Shown: positions 9,109-39,122 of the stretch, one piece after another | Position numbering within the stretch: position 1 is the stretch's first letter | Layout: every line of letters begins with the position of its first letter | Assembly: GCA_024460105.1 (NCBI GenBank) | Contig: JANFXS010000001.1 | Coordinates: 151,895 to 215,894 of the forward strand | Direction of reading: 5' to 3' | DNA from: Anaerotignum faecicola | Lineage (GTDB): Bacteria > Bacillota > Clostridia > Lachnospirales > Anaerotignaceae | Length of the DNA: 64,000 nt | Program-made: the position numbers and the translations under genes | The notes under the pieces: model-generated | What the model was told of the DNA's origin: nothing | What the model saw: only the letters and a program-made list of their open reading frames with translations | Database searches by the model: none

Positions 9109-10077
9109 TTATACGTCCACTTCTATTTTATTCCATGCCTCTTCGTTTCTGTATATGCTTGATTCCATCTGCCACTTTTCAAATTCTGCGCTGAAAATAT
9201 TTTGCCACACCGAATTTGTATAGTCTTCCCTGAGTTTGGCAATAACTTCTTCCCTGCTGCTTTCCTTTATTTCCATAACCCTGAATACGACGAATCCGTT
9301 GTTAATTTCTTCGGGTTTTGATATAAAACCCTCCTCAACACCTATAAATTCTCCCCATTCGCCCTCCAGTTCATTTTGATGCAGAGTTATATTTCCGCCG
9401 TCTCCCCAAGCGATTTCGGAAACATTATATTCATTGTAAAGCTCTTCAAAATCATCTCCGTTTTGAAGCCGCCCATATACTTCGTTTATTTTTTCCTCTT
9501 CGGTACAGAATATACCTTTCAGCTTTATCTGCCTTAATCCTGCCGCTGTGCTTTCATAATAGCTTTTGTAATACGCTTCATACTCAGCTTCGCTTATGGC
9601 ATAATCCTTAACGACATACTGGCGAACTTTTGAATAAAGCATTTCATCGTTAAGCACTTTCTGCATAAGCTTAATATTGCTTTCAGTGTTTTCCATTCCG
9701 TATGCCTCAAGGTATTCCGGAGCCTGACGTGCCGTTTGTTTTTCTTCGTCCTCAGTAAGCGATATATTAAAATCATTAGCCTTCTGCGCCGTAATTTTAA
9801 CGGCCGTCATAGAATTTAAAGCGCTTTCCTTCACTACATCTACAGCGCTGCGGCCGTCAAAATCCGTTTCCCATATATCATAGCCGCCTATTTCCTCAAA
9901 ACTTTTTACAGCTTCGTTCAAATATATATTAAATTCTTCCGCGCTGATTTCTTCGCCGTTTATAACCATAAAATCAGGCGGAGTTTCTTCCTTCTCAACA
10001 GTGCAGCCTGAAAATACAATTGAGGCCGCCAGCAGCACAGCGGATAATATTAATTTTACATTGTTCATCAAGCCCAC
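9109..10077 (-). CDS. SurA/PrsA-like peptidyl-prolyl isomerase lipoprotein
   Basis: 322 aa. Signal peptide with a lipobox (IVFSGC), a SurA-N-like domain and a parvulin-like segment. A foldase gene downstream of mfd is common in Firmicutes. Confidence 0.55.
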   Translation of the reverse strand: MGLMNNVKLILSAVLLAASIVFSGCTVEKEETPPDFMVINGEEISAEEFNIYLNEAVKSFEEIGGYDIWETDFDGRSAVDVVKESALNSMTAVKITAQKANDFNISLTEDEEKQTARQAPEYLEAYGMENTESNIKLMQKVLNDEMLYSKVRQYVVKDYAISEAEYEAYYKSYYESTAAGLRQIKLKGIFCTEEEKINEVYGRLQNGDDFEELYNEYNVSEIAWGDGGNITLHQNELEGEWGEFIGVEEGFISKPEEINNGFVVFRVMEIKESSREEVIAKLREDYTNSVWQNIFSAEFEKWQMESSIYRNEEAWNKIEVDV

Positions 10078-23607: not shown

Positions 23608-24588
23608 TTATTTGTTTAAAAATTCCCTGAGATTTTTCTCATACACTTCAAGATCTACGTCCTCAGGAACAAGGTTTCCTATTTCGCATACTCCAACAGG
23701 CTTAACGTCAGCCTCGTATTCGGCAGTATCGGCCGGAGTTTTGCGGAGTTTTTCATATATAGGCGCCTTTGTAACGTCGTCTGCAAAAGGCATAGGGAAA
23801 TTATAGTCCCTTAAATGCTGTACGTAGTGATCCAAAAACATAGTCCCGTACTGCCTGCTTCTTTCAACAAGGTCAAGATCAAGCGTAACTGTCGCAATAG
23901 TAGGCTCCTGCCCAGCTTCCCAAAGGAGATTGCCCTCCGGGCTTACCACGAGAGAATTTCCGTAAAGATGCACATTATTGAAAAATCCAACGCCGTTTGT
24001 CGAAACAAGATAAGCCTGGTTTTCAAGCGCGCGCGTAAAATGCACCGGCTTATTAAGAAGATAAAGTTCCTGAGGATCCATAGTAAGTTTAACAAGAACT
24101 TCGGCGCCCATTAAAGTTTCGTTCCTGGAAATTTCAGGGAAGTTAAGGTCATAACATATCTGCACGCCTATTTTTGTATTCTTCTCCGGAATATCAAAAA
24201 CAACATATTTGTTTCCCGGCACGGTAATGTCTTCCGACGGCCTCCATGGAGCCATTTTCCTGTATGTGTCTATAAGCTCGCCTTTAGGATTAAAAATAGG
24301 GGCCGTATTATAGAACTTGCCCTCCGGAAGTTCGTCATGTTTTTCAAACATTGTGCCCGGAATAAAATATATGCCGTATTTTTTTGCAAGGGAACCGAAA
24401 TATTCCGTCATAGGCCCTGGTATATATTCAGGCGTGAAACACTCCATACATTCGACGCCCAAAACAAGTTCGGGCTTATGATAACCGGACATTAAAGCAG
24501 CTAGCTTTTCCTCAATAAACCTCAAATTTTCAACAGTATCCTTACTTACAGGCATCTGAATAATGCCGACATTTAAAAACCTTCCCAA
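23608..24588 (-). CDS. Carbon-nitrogen hydrolase family protein (nitrilase/amidase-like)
   Basis: 326 aa with a CN-hydrolase fold (catalytic E, K, C context ...QICYDLNFPE...). Downstream of and co-oriented with the MFS transporter. Confidence 0.75.
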   Translation of the reverse strand: MGRFLNVGIIQMPVSKDTVENLRFIEEKLAALMSGYHKPELVLGVECMECFTPEYIPGPMTEYFGSLAKKYGIYFIPGTMFEKHDELPEGKFYNTAPIFNPKGELIDTYRKMAPWRPSEDITVPGNKYVVFDIPEKNTKIGVQICYDLNFPEISRNETLMGAEVLVKLTMDPQELYLLNKPVHFTRALENQAYLVSTNGVGFFNNVHLYGNSLVVSPEGNLLWEAGQEPTIATVTLDLDLVERSRQYGTMFLDHYVQHLRDYNFPMPFADDVTKAPIYEKLRKTPADTAEYEADVKPVGVCEIGNLVPEDVDLEVYEKNLREFLNK

Positions 24589-24611: not shown

Positions 24612-25841
24612 TTAAGCGTTCTCTTTTTTAAGTTTATTTATAATTAATATACAGCATATTACACTTACAAAACCTACGGCGCCGCATATGCCCCAGCCTA
24701 TATTCCAAAGCCCTTTAACGCCGAAAATGATGCCTACCACAATAGGAGCGAATGTCATGCCGGCGTCACCGCAGCCTCCAATAAATCCTGTGGCAACCGG
24801 AAGCGTATCGTCGGAAAATACTTCCGGAAGTATAGAATAAAAGCATCCAAGCCCCCAAGAACCGGAAAATGACAAAAGCAGTACACAGAAATAAAATACC
24901 GAAAAATTTTCAAGCGGCAATGTCAGCAATAATATAGTTGAAACAACTATAAGTATGCATCCTATCATTAACACGCTTACCCTGCCTATAGCCTTGCTTT
25001 TGTTCCTTGCCGCCGCAAAATCCGAAGCCTTGCCGGAAACTACGCAGGCGCTTATAATACCGATTGTTACGGCTGTCATAATTTTTCCTATTTCCATCTC
25101 TCCGTAGTTGAGGTATGAACCAAAAAGCGTCATATCCACCGATATGGCCTGTACAAGCCATGTCGTGCTCAAGAAACCGAAAACAAAAAACCATACTAAA
25201 GGCATTTTTAGAAGCTTGCCGTAAGATATCGTTTCTCCTTTCGTATCTTCCGCAACCTCTTTTTTCCCGCTTTTTTCTTTTACTGTTATAATCCAAACGA
25301 CAGAAATAACCGCCTGTAAAATACCAAGAGCATAGAATGATGAAACCCAGCCCCATTTTGTTATAACAAAACCGGCAAAAGTTCCTCCGATACCGCCGCC
25401 GCCATAAAATATGCCGTTAAATACAGCCGTAGCAAGGCCAGTTTCGCTTTCGCTTACCCAATCCATTATTATAAGAAGGAACACAGGAAATACAAGCGAA
25501 GCAAAACCCTGTATAAATTTTAATATGTACTGTATCATTATACTGTCAACATGAGGCAATATAAAAAGCGGTATTATTGCAACTGTCATCGAAAAAGCGA
25601 ATACCTTTTTCGCACCGAACTTTTTATATGCAACCCCCGACAGCATCATTGAAAGCACAACGCTTATTGTTTTAATTGTGTCCCCTGCAAGCAGGGCTTC
25701 CTGCGTAACCCCCATTTTCTCCGCCATATACGGCACGCTCATGGAGAACTGCGGAAAACCAGCTGACAGTACACACCCTACCAAAGCATTTATAAAAACA
25801 ATATACCAACCATAAAGCCTATTTCCCTTTACTTTTTCCAT
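24612..25841 (-). CDS. MFS transporter
   Basis: 409 aa, about 12 predicted TM helices. First gene downstream of a sigma-54 promoter. Confidence 0.8.
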   Translation of the reverse strand: MEKVKGNRLYGWYIVFINALVGCVLSAGFPQFSMSVPYMAEKMGVTQEALLAGDTIKTISVVLSMMLSGVAYKKFGAKKVFAFSMTVAIIPLFILPHVDSIMIQYILKFIQGFASLVFPVFLLIIMDWVSESETGLATAVFNGIFYGGGGIGGTFAGFVITKWGWVSSFYALGILQAVISVVWIITVKEKSGKKEVAEDTKGETISYGKLLKMPLVWFFVFGFLSTTWLVQAISVDMTLFGSYLNYGEMEIGKIMTAVTIGIISACVVSGKASDFAAARNKSKAIGRVSVLMIGCILIVVSTILLLTLPLENFSVFYFCVLLLSFSGSWGLGCFYSILPEVFSDDTLPVATGFIGGCGDAGMTFAPIVVGIIFGVKGLWNIGWGICGAVGFVSVICCILIINKLKKENA

Positions 25842-26448: not shown

Positions 26449-27900
26449 TTAAAATTTTTGCTGATTAAGGCCGTATTTCTGCATTTTATAATAAAGCCCC
26501 GTCCTTGAGATTTTAAGTATTGCCGCCGTTTTGTTCCTGCTGCCTCCGGTAATTTCCAGCGCGCGCCGTATGGCTTCCTTTTCCGCTTCGTCCCTGACTT
26601 TTTCAAGAGGGTTTTCTTCATCCGACGCAAGCTCCGGTTTTGAAGAAATTGAGTCCACAATAAAATCCGTAAAGCAGTCCATTGTCAAAACGTCGCCGTT
26701 ACATGCGTTTACCGCCCTTTCGAGTATATTATTAAGCTCGCGCACGTTGCCCGGCCAGTCATACCGCATAAGCATATTCATAACTTCCGGTTCAATGGAT
26801 TTTACTTTTTTCCCTGTTATTTTATTGAGGTTTTTAAGCTTATTATTTGCAAGAAGAGGTATATCCGAAAGCCTTTCGCTTAACGACGGAACCTTGATTT
26901 CAACCACGTTCAGCCTGTAATATAAATCTTCCCTGAACTTTCCCTGTTCGACAAGCTCCTTTAAATTTTTGTTGGTTGCGGCAATAACCCTTATATTAAC
27001 CGGTATGGTTTTCCCGCCGCCGATACGGGTTATTTCCTTCTCCTGAAGCGCCCTCAAAAGCTTCGGCTGTACATGCCATGGAAGCTGATCAATCTCGTCA
27101 AGGAAAAGAGTGCCTTTATCCGCAAGCTCAAATTTGCCTATTTTTCCACCTTTTTTCGCCCCTGTAAAAGCCCCTTCCTCATATCCGAAAAGTTCGCTTT
27201 CAAATAAATTGTCCGGTATAGCCGCACAATTTATTTCGACAATATGCTGCATGCGCCGCCTGCTTACATTATGTATGGAATGGGCCACAAGTTCTTTGCC
27301 GCATCCTGTCTGTCCTATTATCATAACCGTCGATTCAGATTCGGCCATAGCGTGGATTTGCTTTCTAAGCTCCTTTATCTGCATACTGTCGCCTATTATA
27401 TCGGAAACACAGTATTTAACACTGTCAAGCTTTTTCATAACGCCGTAAATTGTGTTTATCGTTTCCGTTAAATTTAAAAATCCTTTAAGCGAATAATCGA
27501 CGATTTGATCCATAAAAGCTTTCAGATCATAATCGTCGCTGAAAATATCATAATCTATCGCCCCTTTAAGTTTTTTATCCGAATATATCGGTTTAATACG
27601 CGCTATATTCGTAACGCCAAGGCTGAAATAAAAACAATTTCTTATTTCCTCCCCGCTTTTTAAAACGCTGCATATTTTGCTTAAAGGGTGAACTTCCTCT
27701 ATGTGCCGCCCTGAAACGTCGTTCGGAACCGGCCTGCCTTCTATCGCATGTATTATCTTAAAAAGATTAGGCGAAAGGTACTTAATGTACCCGCCGCTGT
27801 CAACCACAACAAGATTGTCTATTGTGTCAAGTATTTCATTACACTCTTCAAGCGTTAAATCAAAATTGTCATACTTTTTATCCCTGTCCATAACCGCCAT
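26449..27900 (-). CDS. Sigma-54-dependent transcriptional activator (bEBP) with a PAS-like sensor domain and a C-terminal Fis-type HTH
   Basis: 483 aa. AAA+ sigma-54 interaction domain (GQTGCGKE Walker A, GAFTGA loop, ESELFGY) and a C-terminal HTH. Confidence 0.85.
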   Translation of the reverse strand: MAVMDRDKKYDNFDLTLEECNEILDTIDNLVVVDSGGYIKYLSPNLFKIIHAIEGRPVPNDVSGRHIEEVHPLSKICSVLKSGEEIRNCFYFSLGVTNIARIKPIYSDKKLKGAIDYDIFSDDYDLKAFMDQIVDYSLKGFLNLTETINTIYGVMKKLDSVKYCVSDIIGDSMQIKELRKQIHAMAESESTVMIIGQTGCGKELVAHSIHNVSRRRMQHIVEINCAAIPDNLFESELFGYEEGAFTGAKKGGKIGKFELADKGTLFLDEIDQLPWHVQPKLLRALQEKEITRIGGGKTIPVNIRVIAATNKNLKELVEQGKFREDLYYRLNVVEIKVPSLSERLSDIPLLANNKLKNLNKITGKKVKSIEPEVMNMLMRYDWPGNVRELNNILERAVNACNGDVLTMDCFTDFIVDSISSKPELASDEENPLEKVRDEAEKEAIRRALEITGGSRNKTAAILKISRTGLYYKMQKYGLNQQKF

Positions 27901-27960: not shown

Positions 27961-28743
27961 CTAACTTCGGATTAATCCCTGCTGTATCAGCCACAAATTC
28001 ATCATAACCTTTTGCGGAAGTATTTTAGCGGCCAAATGGCATGCCTTCACATACGGGCCGTATACAGACATATCGCGGCCCTTCAACGCGTCTTTCACAG
28101 CTTTTTCAGCAACTTTATCGGGAGAAACCATACCCATAAAATTATTTGCGGCCATAACCGCCCCTATCTCCGCACGCTTATAAAGCCCCGTATCCATCCA
28201 ACCCGGGCATACGGCGGTAACCGTAATCCCTCTATCCTCAAGCTCTACGTTTAACGCACGCGAATAGCTGCGGACAAACGCCTTTGTGGAGCTATAGATA
28301 TTCTGGTACGGAAGCGGCTGAAACGAAGCCTGCGACGCAATATTTAAAATATGTCCGCCCCTTCGCATAAACGGTATGCATATAAGCCCCATGGCGACAA
28401 CGCCGCTTACGTTTAAGTTAATCATATTTACGGATTCTTCAAGGCTAAGGTCGCTGTAAGAGCAAAATTTTGCAAATCCGGCGCTGTTAACAAGGTATCT
28501 TATTTCCGGTTTTTTCTTCCTGATTATTTCCCCAAGCTTTTTAACGGAAGAAAAATCCGACAAGTCAACCGAAAAAAGTTTTATATTATTTCCATATTCT
28601 TCTTTTAATTTTATTAAATTATCCTTGTTTCTGGCTATCGCCCAAACCTCGTCCAAGTTCCTGTTTTTTATAAAAATCTTAACAAATTCTTTTCCGAGGC
28701 CGCTGCTTGCGCCTGTTACAACGGCAATTTTTTTCCGCTCCAT
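27961..28743 (-). CDS. SDR-family short-chain dehydrogenase/reductase
   Basis: KIAVVTGASSGLG (TGxxxGxG) and a YxxxK catalytic context. Likely start is MERKK at about 28743, which has a GGGGA RBS, rather than the track start at 28809. Confidence 0.75.
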   Translation of the reverse strand: MERKKIAVVTGASSGLGKEFVKIFIKNRNLDEVWAIARNKDNLIKLKEEYGNNIKLFSVDLSDFSSVKKLGEIIRKKKPEIRYLVNSAGFAKFCSYSDLSLEESVNMINLNVSGVVAMGLICIPFMRRGGHILNIASQASFQPLPYQNIYSSTKAFVRSYSRALNVELEDRGITVTAVCPGWMDTGLYKRAEIGAVMAANNFMGMVSPDKVAEKAVKDALKGRDMSVYGPYVKACHLAAKILPQKVMMNLWLIQQGLIRS

Positions 28744-28985
28744 AACAAATCCCCTTTGTTTATAATATTTTTCAGTATTAATATTATATTTCCGAAAATA
28801 CTCAAACATAATCGTATATATTTTACCACATTATTACATTAATAAACAGATGTTTTTGCTTTGCGCTTTTTTATTAGAATTAAGGTTAAAACTATTCCGT
28901 CGTTCTGCATTTCCATTAAAAATTCCATTTACGTACAATAGGATTATATATCATGTCCCATATATAAAAACATGCGGCTTCGCTT

Positions 28986-29427: not shown

Positions 29428-30222
29428 TTACACTATACAAGCTTGTTGGAAAGCATTTCTTCCAAAAACTATATCGACGAAAATATTATCAAGTTCTTCA
29501 AACGACTTATAATTTCTCTCCGGCAGGAAATCGGCAAGACCTTTAAGATCAAGAAGCTGGTTTTCTATATATCGGTTTATACTGTCTATTCTTTTTACGC
29601 TGCCGTACTCTTTTGAGTTTCTTTTCAGGCTGAGCAGGTTTAAAACTTCCTCCTTAACGCTCCCGTCTAACTGCGATTCCACAAGTCTTTCAAACTCCAT
29701 GGGAGACGGCGCGCCCTTTTCAGCAATCCATCTGCATGCAAGCAGAGGGCGCAAAACATAGAAATATTTTTTTATTTTAACTTCGCCGCCTTTCAGGTAT
29801 TCCCTGTAATTGCCTTTGGCCATGCTTAAGTAATGCCAATAGCCGGCCCTTGAAGTAAAATACATATTTATGATTTTTTCCACTTTCCGCCATTGCGGGC
29901 TTGAACAGTATACCACAGGAGAATTGGCCCATTCAAATATCGTAGGGTTTGATTTATGAAGCAGTCTTAAAGCCTTTTTCAAATCCCATCCGTTTATATC
30001 AAGCGTTTCATCAAGCTGCCATTCTATTACGTCCTTCGTTTTTTCAAGCTTTAAATAGTATTCAGGTTTGCGCACATATATAAACCTAACGTCATAGTCG
30101 CTGTCGCATGAAGCAAATCCCCATGCGCGGCTGCCCGATTCGGCGGCATAAATTATCTTTACATTTTCCTTTTCCTCTATTTCTTCAAGCTTTTGCCTGA
30201 TTAAATTCCGCACTGCACACAC
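29428..30222 (-). CDS. Pol-beta-superfamily nucleotidyltransferase (COG3541-like)
   Basis: 264 aa. N-terminal GSRAWGFASCDSDYDVRF is a GS...D.D nucleotidyltransferase motif. It lies 8 nt downstream of rtcB on the same strand. Confidence 0.6.
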   Translation of the reverse strand: MCAVRNLIRQKLEEIEEKENVKIIYAAESGSRAWGFASCDSDYDVRFIYVRKPEYYLKLEKTKDVIEWQLDETLDINGWDLKKALRLLHKSNPTIFEWANSPVVYCSSPQWRKVEKIINMYFTSRAGYWHYLSMAKGNYREYLKGGEVKIKKYFYVLRPLLACRWIAEKGAPSPMEFERLVESQLDGSVKEEVLNLLSLKRNSKEYGSVKRIDSINRYIENQLLDLKGLADFLPERNYKSFEELDNIFVDIVFGRNAFQQACIV

Positions 30223-30229
30223 TCCTTCC

Positions 30230-31453
30230 TTATTCCACGGCTTTAAAATTATAGAGCGGCTTTATTTCTTTTATTATCTTTGCCGTAGGGAAAATATTTT
30301 TAACTATATCGTTTTTATCTTTATACGCCATAGGGCACTCGTCAAGCGTAAGGCTATTAACCGACGTAGTGAAAATACCTTTCATTTCATTTTTAAACTC
30401 CTCAACGGTAAACGTTTCGTTTGCTTTAGAACGGCTGTAAAGCCTCCCCGCCCCGTGCGGAGCGGAAAAATTCCATTCGGGATTTCCTTTTCCGACACAA
30501 ATAAGGCTTCCGTCGCGCATGTTAATCGGTATCAGCATTTTTTCGCCGCTCAATGCCGAAACAGCTCCTTTTCTTATGATATTGCTGTTGTGATCCACAT
30601 AATTATGGACTGTTTCAAAGCTTTCAAAATCATCAGGAGATTTATCAAACATATTTTTCAATATAAGCTCCGCTATTACAGAACGGTTAAGCGCGGCGTA
30701 GTCCTGGCATATTTCCATATCCTCAAGGTACATCCTTCGGCAATCTCCCGTAAGATAGCAAAGCTCCTTGGGGACGTCAATCTCTTTTTCTTTCCAATCT
30801 TTCATAAGTTCTTTAATTTTACCTTGTATCTCTTTTCTTCTTCCTGCTGCTTTATATTCGGCTATAATCCTATCTTTTTCCTCAAAAAACTTATCCTTTC
30901 CCTTCATAATATCATATGCAAGGCTCTGATAATACTCCGCAACCTGCTTTCCCAAGTTCCTGCTGCCCGTATGGATAACAAGGTATTTATTGCCGTTTTC
31001 ATCACAGTCTATCTCTATAAAATGGTTTCCCCCGCCTAAAGTTCCGATACTTCTTTCAATCCTTTTTGTATTTTTCAACATTCTATAACAATTCAAATCC
31101 ATTAAGCGCCCATATCTTACAATTCGCCCTTCATGGGTATTCTTACCGCTGGGAACAAATTTTCTTATAACGTCGTCAAGCTTTTCAAAATCTATTTCCA
31201 TATCCCCAAGCTCTACCGTAAGCATGCCGCATCCTATATCGATGCCAACTATGTTTGGTATAACTTTATCGCCGAGATCCGCCGTAAATCCTATAACGCA
31301 CCCCGCGCCTGCATGCACGTCCGGCATAATCCTTATGCGGCTTCCCTCGGCAAAACTTTGATTACAAAGCTTTTGTATCTGTTCCAATGCATTCTCCTCA
31401 ATTTCATCGGCATATGCCACAGCCATGTTATACCTTCCAACTATCTCTTTCAT
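30230..31453 (-). CDS. rtcB: RtcB-family RNA 3'-phosphate ligase
   Basis: 407 aa. GIDIGCGM metal site, SAPHGAGR (catalytic His/GMP site) and HNYVDH. Its start directly abuts the SPFH gene stop. Confidence 0.9.
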   Translation of the reverse strand: MKEIVGRYNMAVAYADEIEENALEQIQKLCNQSFAEGSRIRIMPDVHAGAGCVIGFTADLGDKVIPNIVGIDIGCGMLTVELGDMEIDFEKLDDVIRKFVPSGKNTHEGRIVRYGRLMDLNCYRMLKNTKRIERSIGTLGGGNHFIEIDCDENGNKYLVIHTGSRNLGKQVAEYYQSLAYDIMKGKDKFFEEKDRIIAEYKAAGRRKEIQGKIKELMKDWKEKEIDVPKELCYLTGDCRRMYLEDMEICQDYAALNRSVIAELILKNMFDKSPDDFESFETVHNYVDHNSNIIRKGAVSALSGEKMLIPINMRDGSLICVGKGNPEWNFSAPHGAGRLYSRSKANETFTVEEFKNEMKGIFTTSVNSLTLDECPMAYKDKNDIVKNIFPTAKIIKEIKPLYNFKAVE

Positions 31454-32548
31454 TTACATTCCCTCCCTGAACGCCGCCGAAAGCTGCGCCAACAAATCAT
31501 TATTCCCATTTAAATTAATGTTTCCCACATGCGAACATATCTTCTCAATATATTCCAGTTCCTTCAGCTTATAAAGGGTTTTATTTTCATCCATAAGCCT
31601 TGCCGTATTAAGAAGCGAACGTGTGGACGCTACTTCTTCCCTGCGGGTTATAACGTTTGCCTGAGCCCTTTTTTCGGCTATAAGCACAGTATTCATAATA
31701 TCGCGTATCTCTCCCGGGAGTATTATATCCTTGACCCCCGCATCCTTTACGCTGATATAATAATCATTCTCCTTTTCTTTCAGCTTTTCAAGCACATACT
31801 TAGATATTATGTCTTTATTTTCCAGTATCTCGTCAATTTTATGCCCGCCCGACACTTCCCTTAAAGCGAGCTGTACCATTACATGTATATGATTTTCGTA
31901 ATTGTCTACGGAAGCTTGTTTTATAAAATCGGTAATACTATAGCTTAAAACAAAATTAACCCTTATGGTTACTTTATCCTGTGTAAGAACCTCCTGTCCG
32001 TTTATATTCATTTGTATAAGCCTTGTATCCGCAAACTCTGTCCTGATCCTGTCGTTAAGTTTCCAAAAATAATATGTTCCCGCTTCAAGAAGCCTCTCAA
32101 ATTTATTGTCAATATATAGCCTTGCTTTTTGATATGGAGCAACGTCTGATTTTATATAAAGCTCTTTCGGAAGCTTTGAAAAAATATATTCAGGTATCTC
32201 TTCGGCCGTTTCCGGAATTGACATATCGTATACTTTAAATTCATGTTTATGAAGCAAATTCCAAAAAGCATGTTTGCCGCACAAAAGAAAGCCTGCATAT
32301 TTGCCGTCGATATAGTGGAGCGCTATTTCCTGATCCTTTACATCAATAACGTCTGCCTCCTCCGATATTATTTCGTCCTTTAAAAGTGTTTCCAATGAAC
32401 ATAATTCCGAAAAAATCGGGCCGTTTATATCCACGGTTTCTATCCTGCGTCCAAAAAACGCATAATATTTACCGTCTTTAAGCGCCTTCACAAAGCTTCC
32501 GTTTTTAAAAAGCAATCCTCTTTCTTCATTACTAATTGTTGTCATCAT
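31454..32548 (-). CDS. SPFH/band-7 (stomatin/slipin-like) domain protein
   Basis: 364 aa. The central region VNFVLSYSITD...QLALREV...LIAEKRAQANVITRREEVASTR matches the SPFH core plus its coiled-coil tail. No N-terminal TM is apparent. Confidence 0.55.
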   Translation of the reverse strand: MMTTISNEERGLLFKNGSFVKALKDGKYYAFFGRRIETVDINGPIFSELCSLETLLKDEIISEEADVIDVKDQEIALHYIDGKYAGFLLCGKHAFWNLLHKHEFKVYDMSIPETAEEIPEYIFSKLPKELYIKSDVAPYQKARLYIDNKFERLLEAGTYYFWKLNDRIRTEFADTRLIQMNINGQEVLTQDKVTIRVNFVLSYSITDFIKQASVDNYENHIHVMVQLALREVSGGHKIDEILENKDIISKYVLEKLKEKENDYYISVKDAGVKDIILPGEIRDIMNTVLIAEKRAQANVITRREEVASTRSLLNTARLMDENKTLYKLKELEYIEKICSHVGNINLNGNNDLLAQLSAAFREGM

Positions 32549-33324
32549 ATATAAACCCCCCTAAGGATTATTTCCGCCGCTCCGCCATACATATACGGCG
32601 GCTTATAAATTCAGGCGCCGTATGCCAAAGCGGGATATCAATCTGGCTTCGGCATATAAGCGACGGTATCCTTTATAAGGCATGGCCGTATATGTATTTT
32701 CCCAAAAGTTATGGCGGTAACACTTTAACAATTTAATACTTGAGCTTTACAGATAACCTAATCCGTATTAAGTCTCCAAAGTCGGAATACATTACGGCAC
32801 AGCCTCATGCACCGCGGTATGTCGCGCACGGAATATAACCCGTATCATCGCCGTCCGCATATTACGCCCAATCGGAGTAAAGCGTCTCCGCCGGGCGCCG
32901 CATCCGGCAGCAGTACGCCAAATACCGGCTACTGACTTTGTATTTAAAGTATAATACTGGAAATAATATTAATCACGGAAAAAAAGTTGCGAAATCAAAT
33001 ACCATGTCGGCCTGCCAAGCTTGCCCAAATTGGGAACAGACAAATCCTGCTTATTGACATAACGTATCTGCTTTAAAAAACTGCCGGAAAATAAAACCTA
33101 AAAAAGATATATCTGCAAACGCCTGTATACATAATATTGCCCGTTTTGCAGAACTTTGCAGTATCCCGCCGTTCAATATACAGCTTATTGCGGACTTGCT
33201 TAAACATACGGCAGTTTTTAAAACAGTATACCTGACGCTGTAAACTGAAAGGCATATAAAAATTGTCGGGCAAATACTTCCCGACAGTAAAAACAATTCT
33301 ATAAATTCGTTAAATATTACATTA

Positions 33325-33361
33325 AAAACGGCGTTTTCAAAATCCGAAAACGCCGTTTTTA
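33325..33361 (-). terminator. Bidirectional rho-independent terminator after the second WYL gene
   Basis: AAAACGGCGTTTTC-ggatttt-GAAAACGCCGTTTTT. A perfect palindrome with flanking T/A runs, immediately after the stop at 33362. Confidence 0.7.
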
Positions 33362-34273
33362 TTATTTTATATTGCATTTCTTCTGCATGACAAGCCGCTC
33401 TTTAATTAGATTTACAAATCCCTCCGGTTCGACCGCTTTCACCTGAGGACCAAACGACAAAACCCGTATTACAAGTTCTGTTTCATCTTCTTTTCTGTAA
33501 AACACTTTCATCTTAAAGCGTCCTTCTCCGACTTTTTCCGCCTCTTTTTGAAAATGAGCAAAATGCATCATTACCCTTTCCAACGCATTCCTTTTATCTT
33601 CAATTTCAATCACAAAGCTTTTCTTTTCAACCGCGTTTTTTATATCATATGTTTTTTTAAACGCGTCAGCCATACTGCATGAAATAATCTTTCCCAGGTT
33701 AAGAACCGAAACTTCGCGTCTGCCCGCCGTATAAAGCCTGAATTTATCGTCTTTTGCCGAATACTCAAGCTTGACCGGGACAATACATGTATTTATAACC
33801 CTTCCGTTTTTTCCGCTGTAAGATATATAAAGCCTTCTTTTTTCGTTCAGCCCTCTAAGTATTATCCTGAAATTTTTGATATATGTTTCATCCTGAAAAT
33901 TATCTCCGTCATTATAACGGTCAAACACAAAATAATCGTCCGTAAGAAACAGAGGCTCGATATCTTCCAATCCTTCCGTTCCAACGCCGAAAAGTTTAAA
34001 CCTCGGATCTAAACTTACGGCCTTTAGCCAACGTTTTTGTATTTCCGTAAGCGGCATCGACGGCGTATGCTTTATCGGGGTTGTCATATCCCTGCATATA
34101 AGCTGCCACTCCTGTTCTTTTATTGACGGTATAATATTAAGCGCGCTTTCTTCAAAGGCATATTTATTTATAATCTCACTCATACGGCTTTCCGTAAGGC
34201 CGCCTTCCTGCGCGCATTTAATTATGTCAGCCACTGCGTTATAATACGAACCGTATATTTCATGAAAAATCAT
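33362..34273 (-). CDS. wHTH-WYL-WCX transcriptional regulator (BrxR/CapW/PafC-like)
   Basis: 303 aa. N-terminal helix-turn-helix; central WYL-like segment (RLYISYSGKNGRVINTCIVPVKLEYSAKDDKFRLYTAG); C-terminal WCX-like beta-rich tail (LVIRVLSFGPQVKAVEPEGFVNLIKERL). Confidence 0.65.
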   Translation of the reverse strand: MIFHEIYGSYYNAVADIIKCAQEGGLTESRMSEIINKYAFEESALNIIPSIKEQEWQLICRDMTTPIKHTPSMPLTEIQKRWLKAVSLDPRFKLFGVGTEGLEDIEPLFLTDDYFVFDRYNDGDNFQDETYIKNFRIILRGLNEKRRLYISYSGKNGRVINTCIVPVKLEYSAKDDKFRLYTAGRREVSVLNLGKIISCSMADAFKKTYDIKNAVEKKSFVIEIEDKRNALERVMMHFAHFQKEAEKVGEGRFKMKVFYRKEDETELVIRVLSFGPQVKAVEPEGFVNLIKERLVMQKKCNIK

Positions 34274-34285
34274 GCCGCAACCACC

Positions 34286-35506
34286 TCAATAAACGCCGTA
34301 CATATCATACATTTCTTCCAGATCGTTTTTGAACGTGTTCTCAACCGTTCTGTTTGAAAAATCAAGCTGCGTAATCCTGCCGATAAAAGTCCTTATCCAT
34401 GGTATCATTTCCGAAGTGTCAAAAACGTCTGCATAAAACCTGTACTTGTTTTCGCCAAGAAACTCAACTTCGCCGCATCGTTTTTCGCGTTCCAGCCTGT
34501 TTAGTATATATTCCTCGCCGTCGTTTATTTTTATTGTAAATTCCACATGCTCAAGACCGTTTTTGCCGTTACAGCATATTCCCCATATATTGTCTTTTAT
34601 ACTGTTTAATCTTTCAGTCAGCTGTTCGTAGTTTTCACATTCTTTGCCGATCTCAACTTCATTTATAAAGTCTGTCCTGTAAGAATTTATAACTTTGTAA
34701 TGCTTATCACAGCCAATTAAATACTGCCTTCCCGTTTGCGAGCTTACATAAATTTTAAGCGGAGTTACGTTTATATTGTTTTTATTGCTTTCGCCTTTTT
34801 TTATGGTTACGTCGCGTCTTTGCCTTATAGCGTTAAAAAGAACGAAAACAATTCCGCTGTCAAGGGCATATGTAATATAGTGGTGTTTAAACGTAAAATT
34901 GCCGTTAAGCTTTCCCATTTTGTCGAGTATAAAGCTTCCTATCACTCCGCACTGCGAAGCTTCCGAAAAAAACGACACCGCATCTTTAAAACCTGATATG
35001 TCAAAACTTCCGCGCCGCCTGTATAAAACATTCCTGCCTCTTTTTTCAGATTCCGTAAGTCCAAGGATACAATACTCCTTCAGTTTTTTTCTTACCCCCG
35101 ACTCGTCAAAAGCCATCGGCTTATCAAAAACAGAAAGATATTCGGCATTAATCTTTTCCATTATTTCTTTCATTGTAAAACATTCATCGGGCTTGTAAAG
35201 TATATCCATTATTATAAAATGCAGAGTTATATCCCCGCTTGTGAAGCTTTTGGCTTTAAAAGCTTTATAAAGCGGGTTTCCCGATATAATCCCTGTGTCA
35301 ATGGATATAAAAACATTTTTTCCGGCCGCCGTCCTGTTAAACCCCATATATCCGCAAAGGTAGCTTTCAATACGCCGGCGCTCATTATCGTACGAACGCA
35401 GGCTTTTCCCGCTGAAATCCTCACGGCTTTTAAATCCGTATACATAAAAATCCCGCATATAGCCGCGTATTTTAGAAAAGTTTTTTATAAGTTCGCTATA
35501 TGCCAT
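34286..35506 (-). CDS. Second WYL-domain regulator (longer wHTH-WYL-WCX paralog), tandem with 33362-34273
   Basis: 406 aa. N-terminal HTH-like region; WYL-like core (...TGRQYLIGCDKHYKVINSYRTDFINEVEI); WCX-like C-terminus (EMIPWIRTFIGRITQLDF). Confidence 0.55.
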   Translation of the reverse strand: MAYSELIKNFSKIRGYMRDFYVYGFKSREDFSGKSLRSYDNERRRIESYLCGYMGFNRTAAGKNVFISIDTGIISGNPLYKAFKAKSFTSGDITLHFIIMDILYKPDECFTMKEIMEKINAEYLSVFDKPMAFDESGVRKKLKEYCILGLTESEKRGRNVLYRRRGSFDISGFKDAVSFFSEASQCGVIGSFILDKMGKLNGNFTFKHHYITYALDSGIVFVLFNAIRQRRDVTIKKGESNKNNINVTPLKIYVSSQTGRQYLIGCDKHYKVINSYRTDFINEVEIGKECENYEQLTERLNSIKDNIWGICCNGKNGLEHVEFTIKINDGEEYILNRLEREKRCGEVEFLGENKYRFYADVFDTSEMIPWIRTFIGRITQLDFSNRTVENTFKNDLEEMYDMYGVY

Positions 35507-35539: not shown

Positions 35540-37102
35540 TTACTCCGCTTTCGCAAATTTCCCTTCAAAGAGTATTTCGCCTGTTTCCTTATCCCTTAAA
35601 AAATAATAAAACGGCCTGTCGGCTATAAATTTTTTCTGCTCGGGAATACTTCGTACAAGCGAAACAGAAGAAACAGAAGCCGCTCTTGTACCTTTCTCAT
35701 CAACGCTTATAGCTGTATTTTGAATTATATCAGAAACATAATAATTATACCCTTCCTTCAGCATCGGGCTTAACTCGGCTTCACCTGGTTCAAATATATT
35801 TGAAACTCCCATATTTTTAAGCATTTCCTTTATATTTATATTGTTGTCTATTTCAAATTCCGGCATTTGGATATATACGTTTTCTTTTTTGCTTCCGTTG
35901 AATATTCTTTCAAGCATGCCGTTGTCAACAGGCTTATCGGATAAAACAAATGTCATGTCGTACGGCGTATAAAGTTCTGCCATATCGCCGGTAATAATAT
36001 CCATGTTTCTAGCCGTACCGTATGCAAGCGTTAATGCCTTCATCCCTTCTTCTTCATAATATTGGAACAAATCTTCATCTCCGAGAGGCTTATCCATAAC
36101 CATATAGTCTATGTCAATTTCCGTACCATCCGCATTATGGAATATGCCTTTTTTATTGTCGCCGTCAAATGGACAAATCCATGTCCCCTCAAATAAGGCT
36201 GCGTTCAAAAGTACAATTTCAAATTCGGCGTCTTTTACAGGAGATTTAACATAACCGTCTGTTTTTTCCTCGACCCATTCATTAATAGGGCTTATATCGC
36301 TATTTTCAATTATTTCTGCCGTACTTTTATAATAATTTTCGGCTGTATCTTTAAATTCCTTTTGCAGCTCGTTTTCAGCCCCATTTATCCATATTGAATT
36401 AGCGCTTGTATAAACAGCCGTCGTAAAAGGCGAATTTTCCCAAAGTTCCAAATTTTTGGCTGAACGTCTATTATAGCTTTCAAGCTCCGATATATTTAAA
36501 GCATTTAAAATCTGTTCCCGCGTTTTGCCTTCTGTGCCGTTTGCCGTCATCGCAAGAGCTGTTTTAAGGCTTTCAACGGCTATTACGCTGTTCTCTGTTT
36601 CAGGAAGTTCATTTAAAAGCGATACGGCGAAAGTATAATCGTTCTCTCTCCGGTTTTTATTGCTTTCGTCACGCCATGTTATTAAAACATTTCCTTCATC
36701 CACAGACAGGCCTGTTTCATAGAAAATCCTGTAAAGAAGATCTGAAGGTATGTACATAACACCATCCGAAACTTCGATTTTGTTTTTTAATTTTATTTCA
36801 ATATTTATTTCACCATAATATAGAGTGTCTTCCGACAAACTTACCGTGTTGCTTTGCGGTCCCCGATCTATTATTGCATACGGGTGCGAATATGCAACTG
36901 TATATCCCAATTTTTCGCAAAGTTCCCTCAGAGGAAGGTATACAACGCCGTTTTTCTCATAAGGTTCATTCAAAAATTCTTCCTGTTCCATGCTGTTGAT
37001 ATAAACATTTAAATTTTTTTCACTTGCGTTTTTTGCATAAGCGAATGAAGGAAACGTCATCGAAATTACGACTGCGGCAAATATCAGCTTTTTAAAAAAC
37101 AT
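35540..37102 (-). CDS. Secreted serpin (serine protease inhibitor) with an N-terminal copper-amine-oxidase-N-like stalk domain
   Basis: Signal peptide MFFKKLIFAAVVISMTFPSFAYA after an AGGAGG RBS; the start is probably at 37102, not 37144. C-terminus has the serpin hinge and reactive-centre loop (EKGTRAASVSS) and the FIADRPFYYFLRDKETGEILFEGK signature. Confidence 0.8.
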   Translation of the reverse strand: MFFKKLIFAAVVISMTFPSFAYAKNASEKNLNVYINSMEQEEFLNEPYEKNGVVYLPLRELCEKLGYTVAYSHPYAIIDRGPQSNTVSLSEDTLYYGEINIEIKLKNKIEVSDGVMYIPSDLLYRIFYETGLSVDEGNVLITWRDESNKNRRENDYTFAVSLLNELPETENSVIAVESLKTALAMTANGTEGKTREQILNALNISELESYNRRSAKNLELWENSPFTTAVYTSANSIWINGAENELQKEFKDTAENYYKSTAEIIENSDISPINEWVEEKTDGYVKSPVKDAEFEIVLLNAALFEGTWICPFDGDNKKGIFHNADGTEIDIDYMVMDKPLGDEDLFQYYEEEGMKALTLAYGTARNMDIITGDMAELYTPYDMTFVLSDKPVDNGMLERIFNGSKKENVYIQMPEFEIDNNINIKEMLKNMGVSNIFEPGEAELSPMLKEGYNYYVSDIIQNTAISVDEKGTRAASVSSVSLVRSIPEQKKFIADRPFYYFLRDKETGEILFEGKFAKAE

Positions 37103-37256
37103 ATATACTCCTCCTTTGACAATATTGAAATTTATATATTTCAATATTACTATATGGCAATAATTTTGTCAATTTTCCCCATTTCATATCTTTGACGATG
37201 AAATTCAATTATGATAAAATATCAGAAATAAACAGGAAAAACGGAGGCATTTTTAC

Positions 37257-39122
37257 ATGCGCAAACACGAAAACAATCAAAAATATAAACCAAAAACCGA
37301 AACCTGCGACATAAAATTTGAAAAATTTGCCGCCTTATTTCCGTCCGCAGTTACGCAAACAGTTATAAACGGCCGAGTAGTCCGGGCTGTTGACAAGGAT
37401 ATATTATCCGCCGAAATTAACGCCGAAATTGTCGGCGGAACAGACGAGGAATATGTATTTTCATGGCCCGGCAAAAGGCATGCCGCTCTTGATACATTCT
37501 CTAAAGCATCCGCGTCCCTTGTGCCATGCAGAAGTGAAAGCGTATTTTTTGATGAAACCGAAAATATATATATCGAAGGCGATAATCTGACCGCTTTAAA
37601 ACTGCTCCAAAAATCTTATAAAAGCAGCATAAAAATGATATATATCGATCCTCCATATAATACGGGCAATGATTTTGTATATAACGATCGATATGCGCAG
37701 AGCGTTTCCGAATTTTCCGCAAAAAGCGGGAAAAGCAAATTTTGCGGCGGCCGCCTTCACACAAACTGGCTTAATATGATGTATCCCCGCCTTTCGGCGG
37801 CCCGAAACCTGTTATGCGATGAAGGAGTTATCATAATAAGCATTGATGACAATGAGCTTGCAAATACAGAAAAAATATGCGACGAAATATTCGGAAGCCA
37901 CAATCATTTAGGCACTTTTATCGTTAATTCAACCCCAAACGCCCGCGATTACGGCCATATAGGGAAAATGCATGAATTCGCCCTCTTTTATGCAAAAGAC
38001 TGCAAAAAGGCAAAAACTTTCAGCATCCCCGACGCCGAAAAAAAATTCAAATACAGCGATGAAAACGGCGGCTTCAACATACACCCTCTTTACAACAGCA
38101 ACGAAGCCTTTACAAAGTATAACCGACCGAACCTTTACTACCCATTTTATCTGTATCCTGACAGGCCCTACGGCAAAAACTTTTTTGAAATCGGCTTTGA
38201 AAAAACCGCAAACTCCATTGAAATATATCCTCCGAAATCCGTAAAAAATTCGGTGCAGTTTGTATGGCGTTGGGGAAAAGAGAAATCCATGAAATACATG
38301 AATAAAGAAATAACCGGCTATATGACAAGCTCCGGAGAATACAGGATTGTACAGAAAATGCGCCGGAAAGATAAAATTATACGTTCTATGCTTACCGATA
38401 CGAAATATTCAAACAGACGCGGAACACAGGAATTTGAAAAGCTGTTTAAAAACAAATGTTTTTCTTTTCCGAAGCCTCTCGGCCTAATAAGCGATTTTTT
38501 AACGGCCGGAACGGATAAAGAAAGCATTGTGCTTGATTTTTTTGCCGGCTCGTCTACAACGGCGCAGGCTGTTATGGAGCTCAACGCCGCAGACGGCGGA
38601 CACCGAAAATTTATCATGATACAACGCCCCGAAAAAACGGCCAAAGACAGCATCGCTTACAAATCCGGATTTAAAAATATATGTGAAATAGGCAAAGAGC
38701 GCATACGCCTTGCAGGGGAAAACATGCGCGAAAGCTGTTCCATGCAAACCGCCGCAGACACAGGGTTTCGTGTTTTTAAACTTCGCGAACCTACCGCGAA
38801 TGTCAAAAGCTGTATTTTGGCTGATAACGCAAACAACTATGACTATGCTGTATTCAACTTAATGGCCGAATCAGGCGTAAAACTTTCATGCAAAGTCATA
38901 GAAAAAACAATATGTTCAAACAGAATATACGAGACTTCCGAAGGCGCCTTAACAGCTTGTTTTGAGGAGTTTATATCCGATGAAGCCGCAAAATACATGG
39001 CCTCTGAAAAACCCGAATACTTTATCGTTTCCTCGCCGCCGTCCGAAAATATAAAACGGATTTTTGAGAATGTCAGCCCTGAAACAAAAATCAAAAACAT
39101 CGGAAAATCCAATAATATTTAA
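37257..39122 (+). CDS. N6-adenine (beta-class) DNA methyltransferase, Type III Mod-like, with no adjacent Res gene (orphan)
   Basis: 621 aa. Motif IV IYIDPPYNTGNDFVYND precedes motif I DFFAGSSTTAQAV, the Mod-type order. GGAGG RBS. No restriction-subunit gene on either side. Confidence 0.8.
   Translation: MRKHENNQKYKPKTETCDIKFEKFAALFPSAVTQTVINGRVVRAVDKDILSAEINAEIVGGTDEEYVFSWPGKRHAALDTFSKASASLVPCRSESVFFDETENIYIEGDNLTALKLLQKSYKSSIKMIYIDPPYNTGNDFVYNDRYAQSVSEFSAKSGKSKFCGGRLHTNWLNMMYPRLSAARNLLCDEGVIIISIDDNELANTEKICDEIFGSHNHLGTFIVNSTPNARDYGHIGKMHEFALFYAKDCKKAKTFSIPDAEKKFKYSDENGGFNIHPLYNSNEAFTKYNRPNLYYPFYLYPDRPYGKNFFEIGFEKTANSIEIYPPKSVKNSVQFVWRWGKEKSMKYMNKEITGYMTSSGEYRIVQKMRRKDKIIRSMLTDTKYSNRRGTQEFEKLFKNKCFSFPKPLGLISDFLTAGTDKESIVLDFFAGSSTTAQAVMELNAADGGHRKFIMIQRPEKTAKDSIAYKSGFKNICEIGKERIRLAGENMRESCSMQTAADTGFRVFKLREPTANVKSCILADNANNYDYAVFNLMAESGVKLSCKVIEKTICSNRIYETSEGALTACFEEFISDEAAKYMASEKPEYFIVSSPPSENIKRIFENVSPETKIKNIGKSNNI

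Follow-up and report, generated by a model that had tools for sequence, protein, structure and literature searches.

A WYL-linked Band-7/SPFH-RtcB RNA-repair cassette with a conserved promoter box and a structured leader RNA in Anaerotignum faecicola and other gut Clostridia

Among RtcB repair operons, only the RtcR/sigma-54 form of Proteobacteria has been studied well. In the Rtc operon of E. coli, Salmonella and Pseudomonas, the RtcB ligase is placed under a dedicated ligand-sensing activator and the signal is damaged tRNA (PMC7790460). The rtc locus of P. aeruginosa, which RtcR controls, includes the SPFH gene PaFlo8, and the Pseudomonas locus also holds the nucleotidyltransferase RlaP. Another type of system was predicted by Burroughs and Aravind (NAR 2016), who, as quoted in bioRxiv 10.1101/312249, brought together Band-7, RtcB and a band-7-associated tRNA-like RNA (b7a-tRNA). 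The name RlaP originates from the same work, as quoted in PMC12776372. A later paper of the same group cites the 2016 work for 'WYL domain TFs' (transcription factors) and holds that factors with CARF or WYL domains may recognise RNAs ending in a cyclic phosphate and control pathways of RNA repair (PMC9503650). Here, we analyse a locus of Anaerotignum faecicola that lies in a 64,000-nt stretch of contig JANFXS010000001.1 (the window hereafter). On the minus strand it encodes, in this order, two WYL-domain proteins (WYL-A and WYL-B), a spacer, an SPFH/Band-7 protein, RtcB and RlaP (Table 1).

This locus is a self-contained RNA-repair cassette of the Band-7/SPFH-RtcB class that is widespread in gut Clostridia. 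A profile of SPFH homologues recovered 80 loci from species-representative genomes, denoted here by L numbers. Their sources are Oscillospiraceae, Acutalibacteraceae, Lachnospiraceae, Christensenellaceae, an Erysipelotrichaceae metagenome-assembled genome, Ruthenibacterium and Robinsoniella, L037 being from an isolate genome of Robinsoniella peoriensis. Their gene content was established by tblastn with the window proteins, the WYL genes being counted only in the 52 loci with at least 4 kb of upstream sequence. In Clostridia, the constant core is made up of promoter box, structured RNA and soluble SPFH protein; a divergent WYL pair is added to it in about 85% of loci, RtcB in about 77% and RlaP in about 20%. 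WYL-A and then WYL-B stand directly upstream of SPFH on the same strand in 44 of 52 loci, and RtcB directly 3′ of SPFH in 50 of 65. Gene order and orientation are kept across Oscillospiraceae, Lachnospiraceae, Christensenellaceae and Erysipelotrichaceae while the other neighbours change. The linkage of WYL genes with SPFH-RtcB is far above chance. Both the five genes that the original prediction had placed on the minus strand, whose coordinates agree with the open reading frames (ORFs), and the co-occurrence of WYL and rtcB genes that it had asked of comparative genomics are thereby borne out. L081 carries the same five genes as the window between different flanks, and the regions 5′ of WYL-A and 3′ of the cassette were unlike those of the window in each other genome examined. 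It is because of these changing flanks, together with the flat GC profile of the window, that we regard the cassette as a self-contained module. For the same reason, the serpin gene, the N6/N4 methyltransferase gene and the tRNA-Leu/Arg/Gly cluster found nearby are mere neighbours, and the accessory or defence island once drawn around all of them finds no support.

How does this cassette compare with the systems already described? With the Band-7/RtcB/RlaP systems of the 2016 prediction, as these are quoted in later papers, it shares the protein set and a non-coding RNA just 5′ of the Band-7 gene. The RNA differs from the b7a-tRNA of those quotations. It is far larger than a tRNA, having a core of three helices (P1-P3), optional anticodon and T arms and a 135-nt rod, and the only b7a-tRNA features in the window are a T-loop-like hairpin and the remnant of an anticodon arm, a different conserved structured RNA being present. 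From the Rtc operon the cassette is set apart by having neither a CARF/sigma-54 RtcR nor a conserved sigma-54 promoter, control being apparently exerted by two WYL proteins at a sigma-A-type promoter. RtcA gave no family match among the cassette genes and their immediate neighbours, the scan for it covering these genes and not the whole window. The original prediction called the whole an uncharacterised architecture. This is so experimentally, as we found no experimental work on a WYL-controlled Band-7/RtcB operon in the searchable literature, but not at the level of genomic prediction. That a WYL factor replaces RtcR on a Band-7/RtcB operon is very probably already in print, because the 2016 work is quoted for Band-7, RtcB, RlaP and a tRNA-like RNA and is cited for WYL factors. 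What appears to be undescribed in the searchable literature is the obligatory pair of divergent WYL genes, one of them without a canonical helix-turn-helix (HTH), the invariant operator/promoter geometry with its double use as a terminator arm, and the rod and P2/P3 RNA families with their strict association with SPFH.

Sequence comparisons identify the two upstream proteins only in part. The Pfam WYL score of WYL-A is 20.5 bits, below the cut-off of 21.8, and WYL-B itself has no Pfam match; PDB sequence searches with the WYL profiles gave marginal matches only, and fold searches were needed. AlphaFold2 models built on 34-sequence alignments (mean predicted local distance difference test, pLDDT, 67.5 for WYL-A and 79.6 for WYL-B) were compared by Foldseek. 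WYL-A matched DriD (8tp8, E 1e-12), PafBC (9fnd), CapW and BrxR, and WYL-B matched PafBC (9fnd_X, E 6e-9; 6sj9), DriD, CapW and BrxR, with E values from 1e-12 to 1e-5 across the two proteins. Since, in addition, most WYL-A homologues carry PF13280 and some WYL-B homologues carry PF13280 and/or PF25583 (WCX), the WYL identity of both proteins, already proposed from the sequence, is settled. The further claim of a winged HTH, a WYL and a WCX domain in each holds in full for WYL-A and only for the last two domains in WYL-B, where no wing or winged HTH is recognisable. WYL-A and WYL-B are paralogues that diverged long ago, like PafB and PafC, and the suggested PafB/PafC-like pairing of two divergent WYL proteins is supported. 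WYL-B stands beside WYL-A in every locus that has WYL-A, with a gap of 12–18 nt, and in the closest complete relative the two genes overlap by 4 nt. Residues 1–91 of WYL-A (35234-35506, minus strand) are among its most conserved stretches, with many invariant Y, F, R and K residues, a pLDDT below 50 and no Pfam match. These N-terminal 90 or so residues may be an undescribed domain.

The spacer between WYL-B and SPFH had been seen as a 770-nt untranslated gap behind a strong terminator. The terminator hairpin is there, at the position given in Table 1, the spacer measures 813 nt (32549-33361), and instead of a mere gap it holds a conserved promoter box and a structured RNA. In most genomes the spacer is 450–550 nt long and the box lies within 5–10 nt of the WYL-B stop codon; the window spacer owes its greater length to an insertion of about 330 nt after WYL-B, which is unconserved and brings a strong terminator of its own. 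The form of the box conserved among the loci is TTCGCAGCTTTTTTTCCGTGA. It is present in 75 of 80 loci, as one copy in 73 and as two copies in L004 and L048, and it is mostly identical at 21 or 20 of its 21 positions while the flanking proteins are only 45–60% identical. The -10 element of most relatives is TGGTAAAAT, an extended -10, and in more than 40 loci it follows the box at a fixed distance of 19 nt, which places the box at roughly -53 to -33, over a poor -35. The box itself is asymmetric, not palindromic, and centred near -42. Upstream of WYL-A, neither the box nor any other conserved motif was found in 50 loci, and thus no autoregulatory site, which fits constitutively expressed activators. 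In these respects, the locus resembles the mycobacterial/actinobacterial heterodimer PafBC and DriD of Caulobacter, with which it shares the HTH-WYL-WCX fold, a site over or replacing a weak -35 before a good -10, and no evident self-regulation; PafB and PafC are also two adjacent divergent paralogues. The differences are that repair here concerns RNA and not DNA, that WYL-B is without a recognisable winged HTH, that WYL-A has an extra N-terminal region and that sequence similarity is negligible.

The predicted transcript leader is a conserved structured RNA of about 370 nt (about 370–450 nt across loci) made of several independent modules. Its 3′ module, the rod, shows compensatory changes in 31 of 34 pairs (RNAalifold). 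In the alignment, 89.9% of cells are paired against about 40% in slid controls, two-sided changes number 281 against 47–78, and none of 500 shuffles reached the observed values. The internal loops of the rod are conserved (GCCUUG/CCGC, GGAUACC, GCCAAAAG/CUUUCCGC and CACUNAAG). A covariance model of the rod (R1) found a sole match in the window, at 32707-32574 (92 bits, E 2e-23), and one match each in 80 of 81 SPFH loci, always upstream of SPFH and on its strand. In the 5′ module of the relatives, P1 (UUGCAAG/CUUGCAA; RNAalifold, 13 sequences) encloses P2 and P3; P1 of the window was read from a first minimum free energy fold and was not reproduced in the fold of the whole leader. P3 is highly conserved (GGUGCAC-AGGAUAUUCC-AAAGUGUAUGCC in the alignment of 45 loci). 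For P2 and P3 together, 98.4% of cells are paired against 21–56% in slid controls, with two-sided changes in 9 of 15 pairs (46 sequences), and their covariance model (R2) has one match in the window, at 32762-32849 on the minus strand (23 bits, E 1e-4). Rod and P2/P3 core would be new RNA families; a search of Rfam with the leader of a relative returned T-arm fragments only and no family. A long-range CACUG/CAGUG pairing considered for the 5′ RNA was discarded, no covariation being seen by eye on the alignment. In at least seven loci (L074, L012, L034, L041, L056, L064 and L027, by spacing) about 640 extra nt lie between rod and SPFH; in L074 this stretch (9303-9968) holds a 221-aa ORF of no convincing family.

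Between these modules, most relatives have a middle part with an anticodon-like hairpin, a canonical T arm (CGCGGGUUCGAAUCCCGC; GGTTCGAATCC) and two further hairpins, and ARAGORN called a tRNA in four of the relative loci. The 7-nt loops of the anticodon-like hairpins, found 5′ of the T arm (for instance in L008 at about 9640-9680, and in L010, L023, L054 and L060), read CUGUCAA in 11 cases, CUGUAAA in 5–6 and CUGUUAA in 5, and more rarely CUGACAA (4) or UUGUGAA (1), in loci that are not phylogenetically independent.

The three genes that follow the leader encode what had been expected of them. Pfam assigns them to Band_7, RtcB and RlaP, and both catalytic motifs of RtcB are intact (GIDIGCGM at residue 70, APHGAGR at residue 331). 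The SPFH protein, which shows 100% identity with an A. faecicola 'slipin family protein', has more than 7000 homologues. Its N-terminal 145 residues have no Pfam match, and it is without a hydrophobic segment (maximum KD19 0.81) and therefore cytoplasmic. The Pol-beta nucleotidyltransferase belongs to PF10127, the 'RNA ligase-associated Pol-beta' family that gives RlaP its name; it is an optional member, present in about 8 of 41 related loci, and no other conserved gene was found 3′ of RtcB among them. RlaP adds 1–2 nucleotides to the 3′-OH of damaged RNAs and is needed to restore aminoacylation of over-damaged tRNA-Asp (PMC12776372). SPFH is not followed by RtcB in 15 of 65 loci (L001, L010, L028, L031, L037, L038, L043, L045, L048, L054, L067, L069, L070, L071 and L077), L045 having an RtcB fragment only. 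Most of these 15 keep the box and the rod, L028, L038 and L071 being without the box. As rod and SPFH are mostly kept where RtcB is missing, the RNA-SPFH pair is more constant than the ligase.

Searching with the box also led to two IMG/VR contigs, L084 (671-8600) and L085 (7681-11478), in which WYL pair, box and RtcB occur without SPFH, and on which neither R1 nor R2 found a match. Their promoter drives near-canonical tRNA-like genes inside Y-RNA-like GGCACC...GGUGCC stems (Rfam tRNA, 48–49 bits), and in L084 these RNAs carry repeated AACAGCAA motifs. L084 further encodes a DUF2828/DUF7788 protein, RtcB, RlaP and a CCA-type nucleotidyltransferase; the identified parts of L085 are WYL-A/WYL-B, the box, the tRNA-like/Y-RNA-like RNAs and RtcB. 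It follows that the WYL pair and the box go with the promoter of RtcB-type repair operons, and rod and P2/P3 with SPFH. The cassette and these sister systems recall the modules of Ro60 (Rsr), Y RNA (YrlA) and RtcB, in which a ring or scaffold protein and a structured, partly tRNA-like RNA stand beside RtcB. In the sisters, Y-like modules with tRNA-like domains follow the same WYL box and, in L084, are accompanied by the DUF2828 protein. The window differs in having SPFH instead of a TROVE-type protein and an RNA that matches neither the tRNA nor the Y-RNA-type models of Rfam. In L004 (7319-9520) the box is duplicated and a 488-aa DUF2828/DUF7788 ORF lies between the copies, upstream of the usual RNA, SPFH and RtcB genes, so that both scaffold types are combined in one locus.

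We propose, with confidence slightly better than even, that a PafBC-like pair of WYL-A and WYL-B acting at the box switches on a repair particle of SPFH, RNA, RtcB and RlaP upon RNA damage. The two proteins would be expressed from an unregulated promoter of their own and would act as a PafBC-like heterodimer to which only WYL-A contributes a canonical winged HTH. This heterodimer would bind the asymmetric 21-bp box over the weak -35 (about -53 to -33) of the extended -10 promoter. The WYL domains may bind a nucleic-acid damage signal, for which cleaved tRNA or other single-stranded RNA fragments seem the likeliest candidates by analogy with PafBC, DriD and CapW, which sense single-stranded DNA, and with RtcR, which senses tRNA halves. 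The signal-bound pair would then activate transcription, and the transcript would begin with the structured RNA of about 370 nt, with tRNA-like anticodon and T arms in most relatives (decayed in the window) followed by the rod. This RNA would be the cognate partner of an SPFH oligomer, as Y RNA is of Ro60, and on the SPFH-RNA scaffold RtcB would be presented with broken RNAs to ligate and RlaP with 3′ ends to rebuild. More tentatively, and with clearly less assurance than for the switch itself, we envisage a heterodimeric WYL sensor of damaged RNA, not single-stranded DNA, that induces a tRNA mimic joined to the rod RNA, the two forming with an SPFH cage a Ro/Y-RNA-like ribonucleoprotein that recruits RtcB and RlaP to broken tRNAs. 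Anticodons of the GUN family are those of the Asp/Tyr/Asn/His queuosine group, which colicin E5-type tRNases target, and the mostly CUGUNAA loops of the tRNA mimics in the relatives, which carry GUN, suggest a bait, or a template, for damage by anticodon nucleases of the colicin E5 type.

Several observations weigh against this mechanism. We infer the heterodimer, its binding to DNA, the identity of the ligand, the direction of regulation and the transcription start site. The profiles of WYL-A and WYL-B give only a weak alignment with hhalign. The box is mostly present also in the eight of 52 loci that have no WYL pair beside it. In most loci, its first 17 nt serve as the 3′ arm and U-tract of a WYL-B terminator, whose 5′ arm is formed by the last WYL-B codons (...KSCGLK and stop). 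This hairpin covaries (CAGCT/AGCTG to CAACT/AGTTG), and part of the conservation of the box must therefore have another cause. As for the RNA, ARAGORN found no tRNA in the window spacer. The 5′ module of the window is rearranged with respect to its closest relative, an extra GC-rich hairpin and a T-loop-like hairpin preceding P2/P3, and the anticodon and T arms are gone except for the remnant CUGUAAAGCUC, which leaves the tRNA-like part degenerate. Rfam 15, searched with the window spacer at the gathering thresholds and at E values up to 10, gave only junk matches on the terminator. Also, the position of the rod directly 5′ of the SPFH ribosome-binding site fits a cis-regulatory leader as well.

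Could the WYL genes then be mere neighbours, the box being kept as WYL-B terminator and A/T-rich UP element and the SPFH operon being constitutive or otherwise controlled? The covarying hairpin, the loci without a WYL pair and those without RtcB would agree with this, and we still hold it very improbable. At least ten loci without the terminator partner arm have the box unaltered, the CCGTGA past the U-tract included. One of these is the window, where the pairing is lost, the C-terminus of WYL-B reads KKCNIK, the new terminator has appeared and the box lies 370 nt from WYL-B. It is likewise unchanged in loci without an adjacent WYL pair, and L084, whose WYL genes diverge from the RtcB operon, keeps both the box and its spacing from the -10. 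Because the box persists where the terminator gives no explanation, we take it to be a promoter-bound element that was also recruited as a terminator arm. Its interpretation as a pure protein-binding site was partly revised accordingly, the 5′ half doubling as the terminator arm. The WYL pair, moreover, accompanies the box into RtcB operons that are without SPFH, and order and orientation are kept across several families where other neighbours change. A less improbable alternative, which we nonetheless consider unlikely, is that the WYL pair is a repressor of the BrxR/CapW kind that occludes the -35 region at the box until a damage ligand releases it. The overlap of the box with the -35 position is what such a repressor would need, the folds of both proteins also resemble those of the repressors CapW and BrxR, and Aravind's group calls WYL factors in conflict operons negative regulators. 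BrxR and CapW, however, are homodimers with a palindromic operator in their own promoter, unlike the asymmetric box and the WYL-A upstream region devoid of a site; the best fold matches are to the activators DriD and PafBC; and a poor -35 with an extended -10 and a site centred near -42 is typical of activator-dependent promoters. Taken together, these features would suit a PafBC- or DriD-like activator more than a repressor of the BrxR/CapW type.

Instead of being a trans-acting partner of SPFH, the leader might regulate in cis, as a riboswitch, an attenuator or a protein-binding leader, and so govern the translation of SPFH-RtcB or the stability of their transcript. We rate this as possible though doubtful, somewhat above the repressor. 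Between the rod and the ribosome-binding site there are about 12 nt in the window, and a similar number in most loci; rod and SPFH always share strand and transcript, and autoregulation through SPFH binding would be expected to produce the same strict linkage. The loci with some 640 nt between rod and SPFH, the 221-aa ORF of L074 included, weigh somewhat against a simple translational switch. A length of about 370–450 nt with several modules, tRNA-like arms among them, is unlike known riboswitches, the leader has no Rfam match, and the sister systems have free-standing tRNA-like or Y-like RNAs at the same position. A cytoplasmic SPFH with an SPFH-linked RNA fits what is expected of a Ro60/Y RNA-like particle, and feedback of SPFH on a cis-acting leader would give the same pattern. 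The activated SPFH-RNA-RtcB-RlaP particle remains the reading we favour, at the strength stated above.

Table 1. Positions in the window of the cassette genes, promoter elements and leader RNA modules.
Feature	Position	Strand	Remarks
WYL-A	34286..35506	minus	406 aa; conserved N-terminal region 1-91, winged HTH ~105-165, WYL ~230-290, WCX ~319-402
WYL-B	33362..34273	minus	303 aa; helical N-terminus, WYL ~146-204, WCX ~218-299; starts 12 nt after WYL-A stop
Intrinsic terminator of the WYL genes	33323..33361	minus	16-bp stem, bidirectional; window-specific, not conserved in other loci
Insertion of ~330 nt between WYL-B and box	32994..33322	minus	Window-specific; conservation profile zero
21-nt box TTCGCAACTTTTTTTCCGTGA, putative operator of the WYL pair	32973..32993	minus	~-53 to -33 of the operon promoter; one copy in the window
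-10 element TATACT	32948..32953	minus	19 nt after the box; predicted transcription start site near 32941
5′ RNA module	32777..32940	minus	Closed by P1: CAAAGTC 32940-32934 with GACTTTG 32783-32777
Parts of the 5′ RNA module		minus	Long hairpin 32911-32850 (window-specific), T-loop-like hairpin 32843-32828, P2 32827-32813, P3 32813-32784
3′ RNA module (rod), 135 nt	32574..32707	minus	Four coaxial helices; ends ~12 nt before the SPFH ribosome-binding site
SPFH/Band-7 ('slipin') protein	31454..32548	minus	Pfam Band_7, E 3.5e-24
RtcB, 3′-phosphate/5′-OH RNA ligase	30230..31453	minus	Pfam RtcB, E 3.9e-61; start abuts SPFH stop
RlaP (PF10127), Pol-beta nucleotidyltransferase	29428..30222	minus	Pfam, E 4.5e-90; 7 nt after RtcB

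Around the cassette, some features of the window deserve mention in their own right. A serpin with an N-terminal domain of the copper-amine-oxidase-N1 type (35540-37144, minus strand) is encoded on the strand of WYL-A and stops only 33 nt upstream of the start codon of that gene. In A. faecicola the serpin and WYL genes may share a transcript; other genomes have unrelated sequence at this place. Beyond it, an N6/N4 DNA methyltransferase of 621 aa (37257-39122, plus strand) has a Pfam match split over residues 125–459, which implies a large insertion. As the original prediction had it, RtcR is absent, the only nearby sigma-54 activator being PrdR-like and without CARF. This gene (26449-27900, minus strand), 1.5 kb downstream, was considered as an RtcR and rejected: its N-terminus aligns with PrdR, and the RtcR model covers only the AAA+ and HTH parts, with 295 bits against a cut-off of 650. 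It stands beside genes of a short-chain dehydrogenase (27961-28809), a major facilitator superfamily transporter (24612-25841) and a nitrilase/amidase-family protein (23608-24588), and together these genes resemble a catabolic sigma-54 unit that is distinct from the cassette and has no relation to it. A candidate sigma-54 promoter in the spacer, TGGTATTTGATTTCGCA, was likewise dismissed, its spacing being one base off the consensus and its upstream half not conserved in other loci; no conserved GG-N10-GC element was found upstream of the operon. The 108-aa ORF at 33051-33377 is probably spurious, as it spans the terminator and has no Pfam or NCBIfam match, and the small ORFs 3′ of RlaP have no family matches.

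What does this cassette mean for RNA repair in Gram-positive gut bacteria? The locus turns the 2016 prediction into a directly testable set of elements. Together with its about 80 relatives, it supplies a candidate operator of 21 bp, a defined promoter, a pair of small regulators and an SPFH-linked covarying RNA of 135 nt as concrete starting points. The system is abundant in the Clostridia of human and animal guts, where the relevant stresses are ribotoxins, colicin-like tRNases and ribosome-targeting antibiotics. It bears on how RNA repair is induced in these bacteria, on WYL sensing outside DNA damage and phage defence, and on the roles of SPFH proteins and RNA in RNA repair. If the proposed particle is real, SPFH proteins would be a new class of RNA-binding scaffold.

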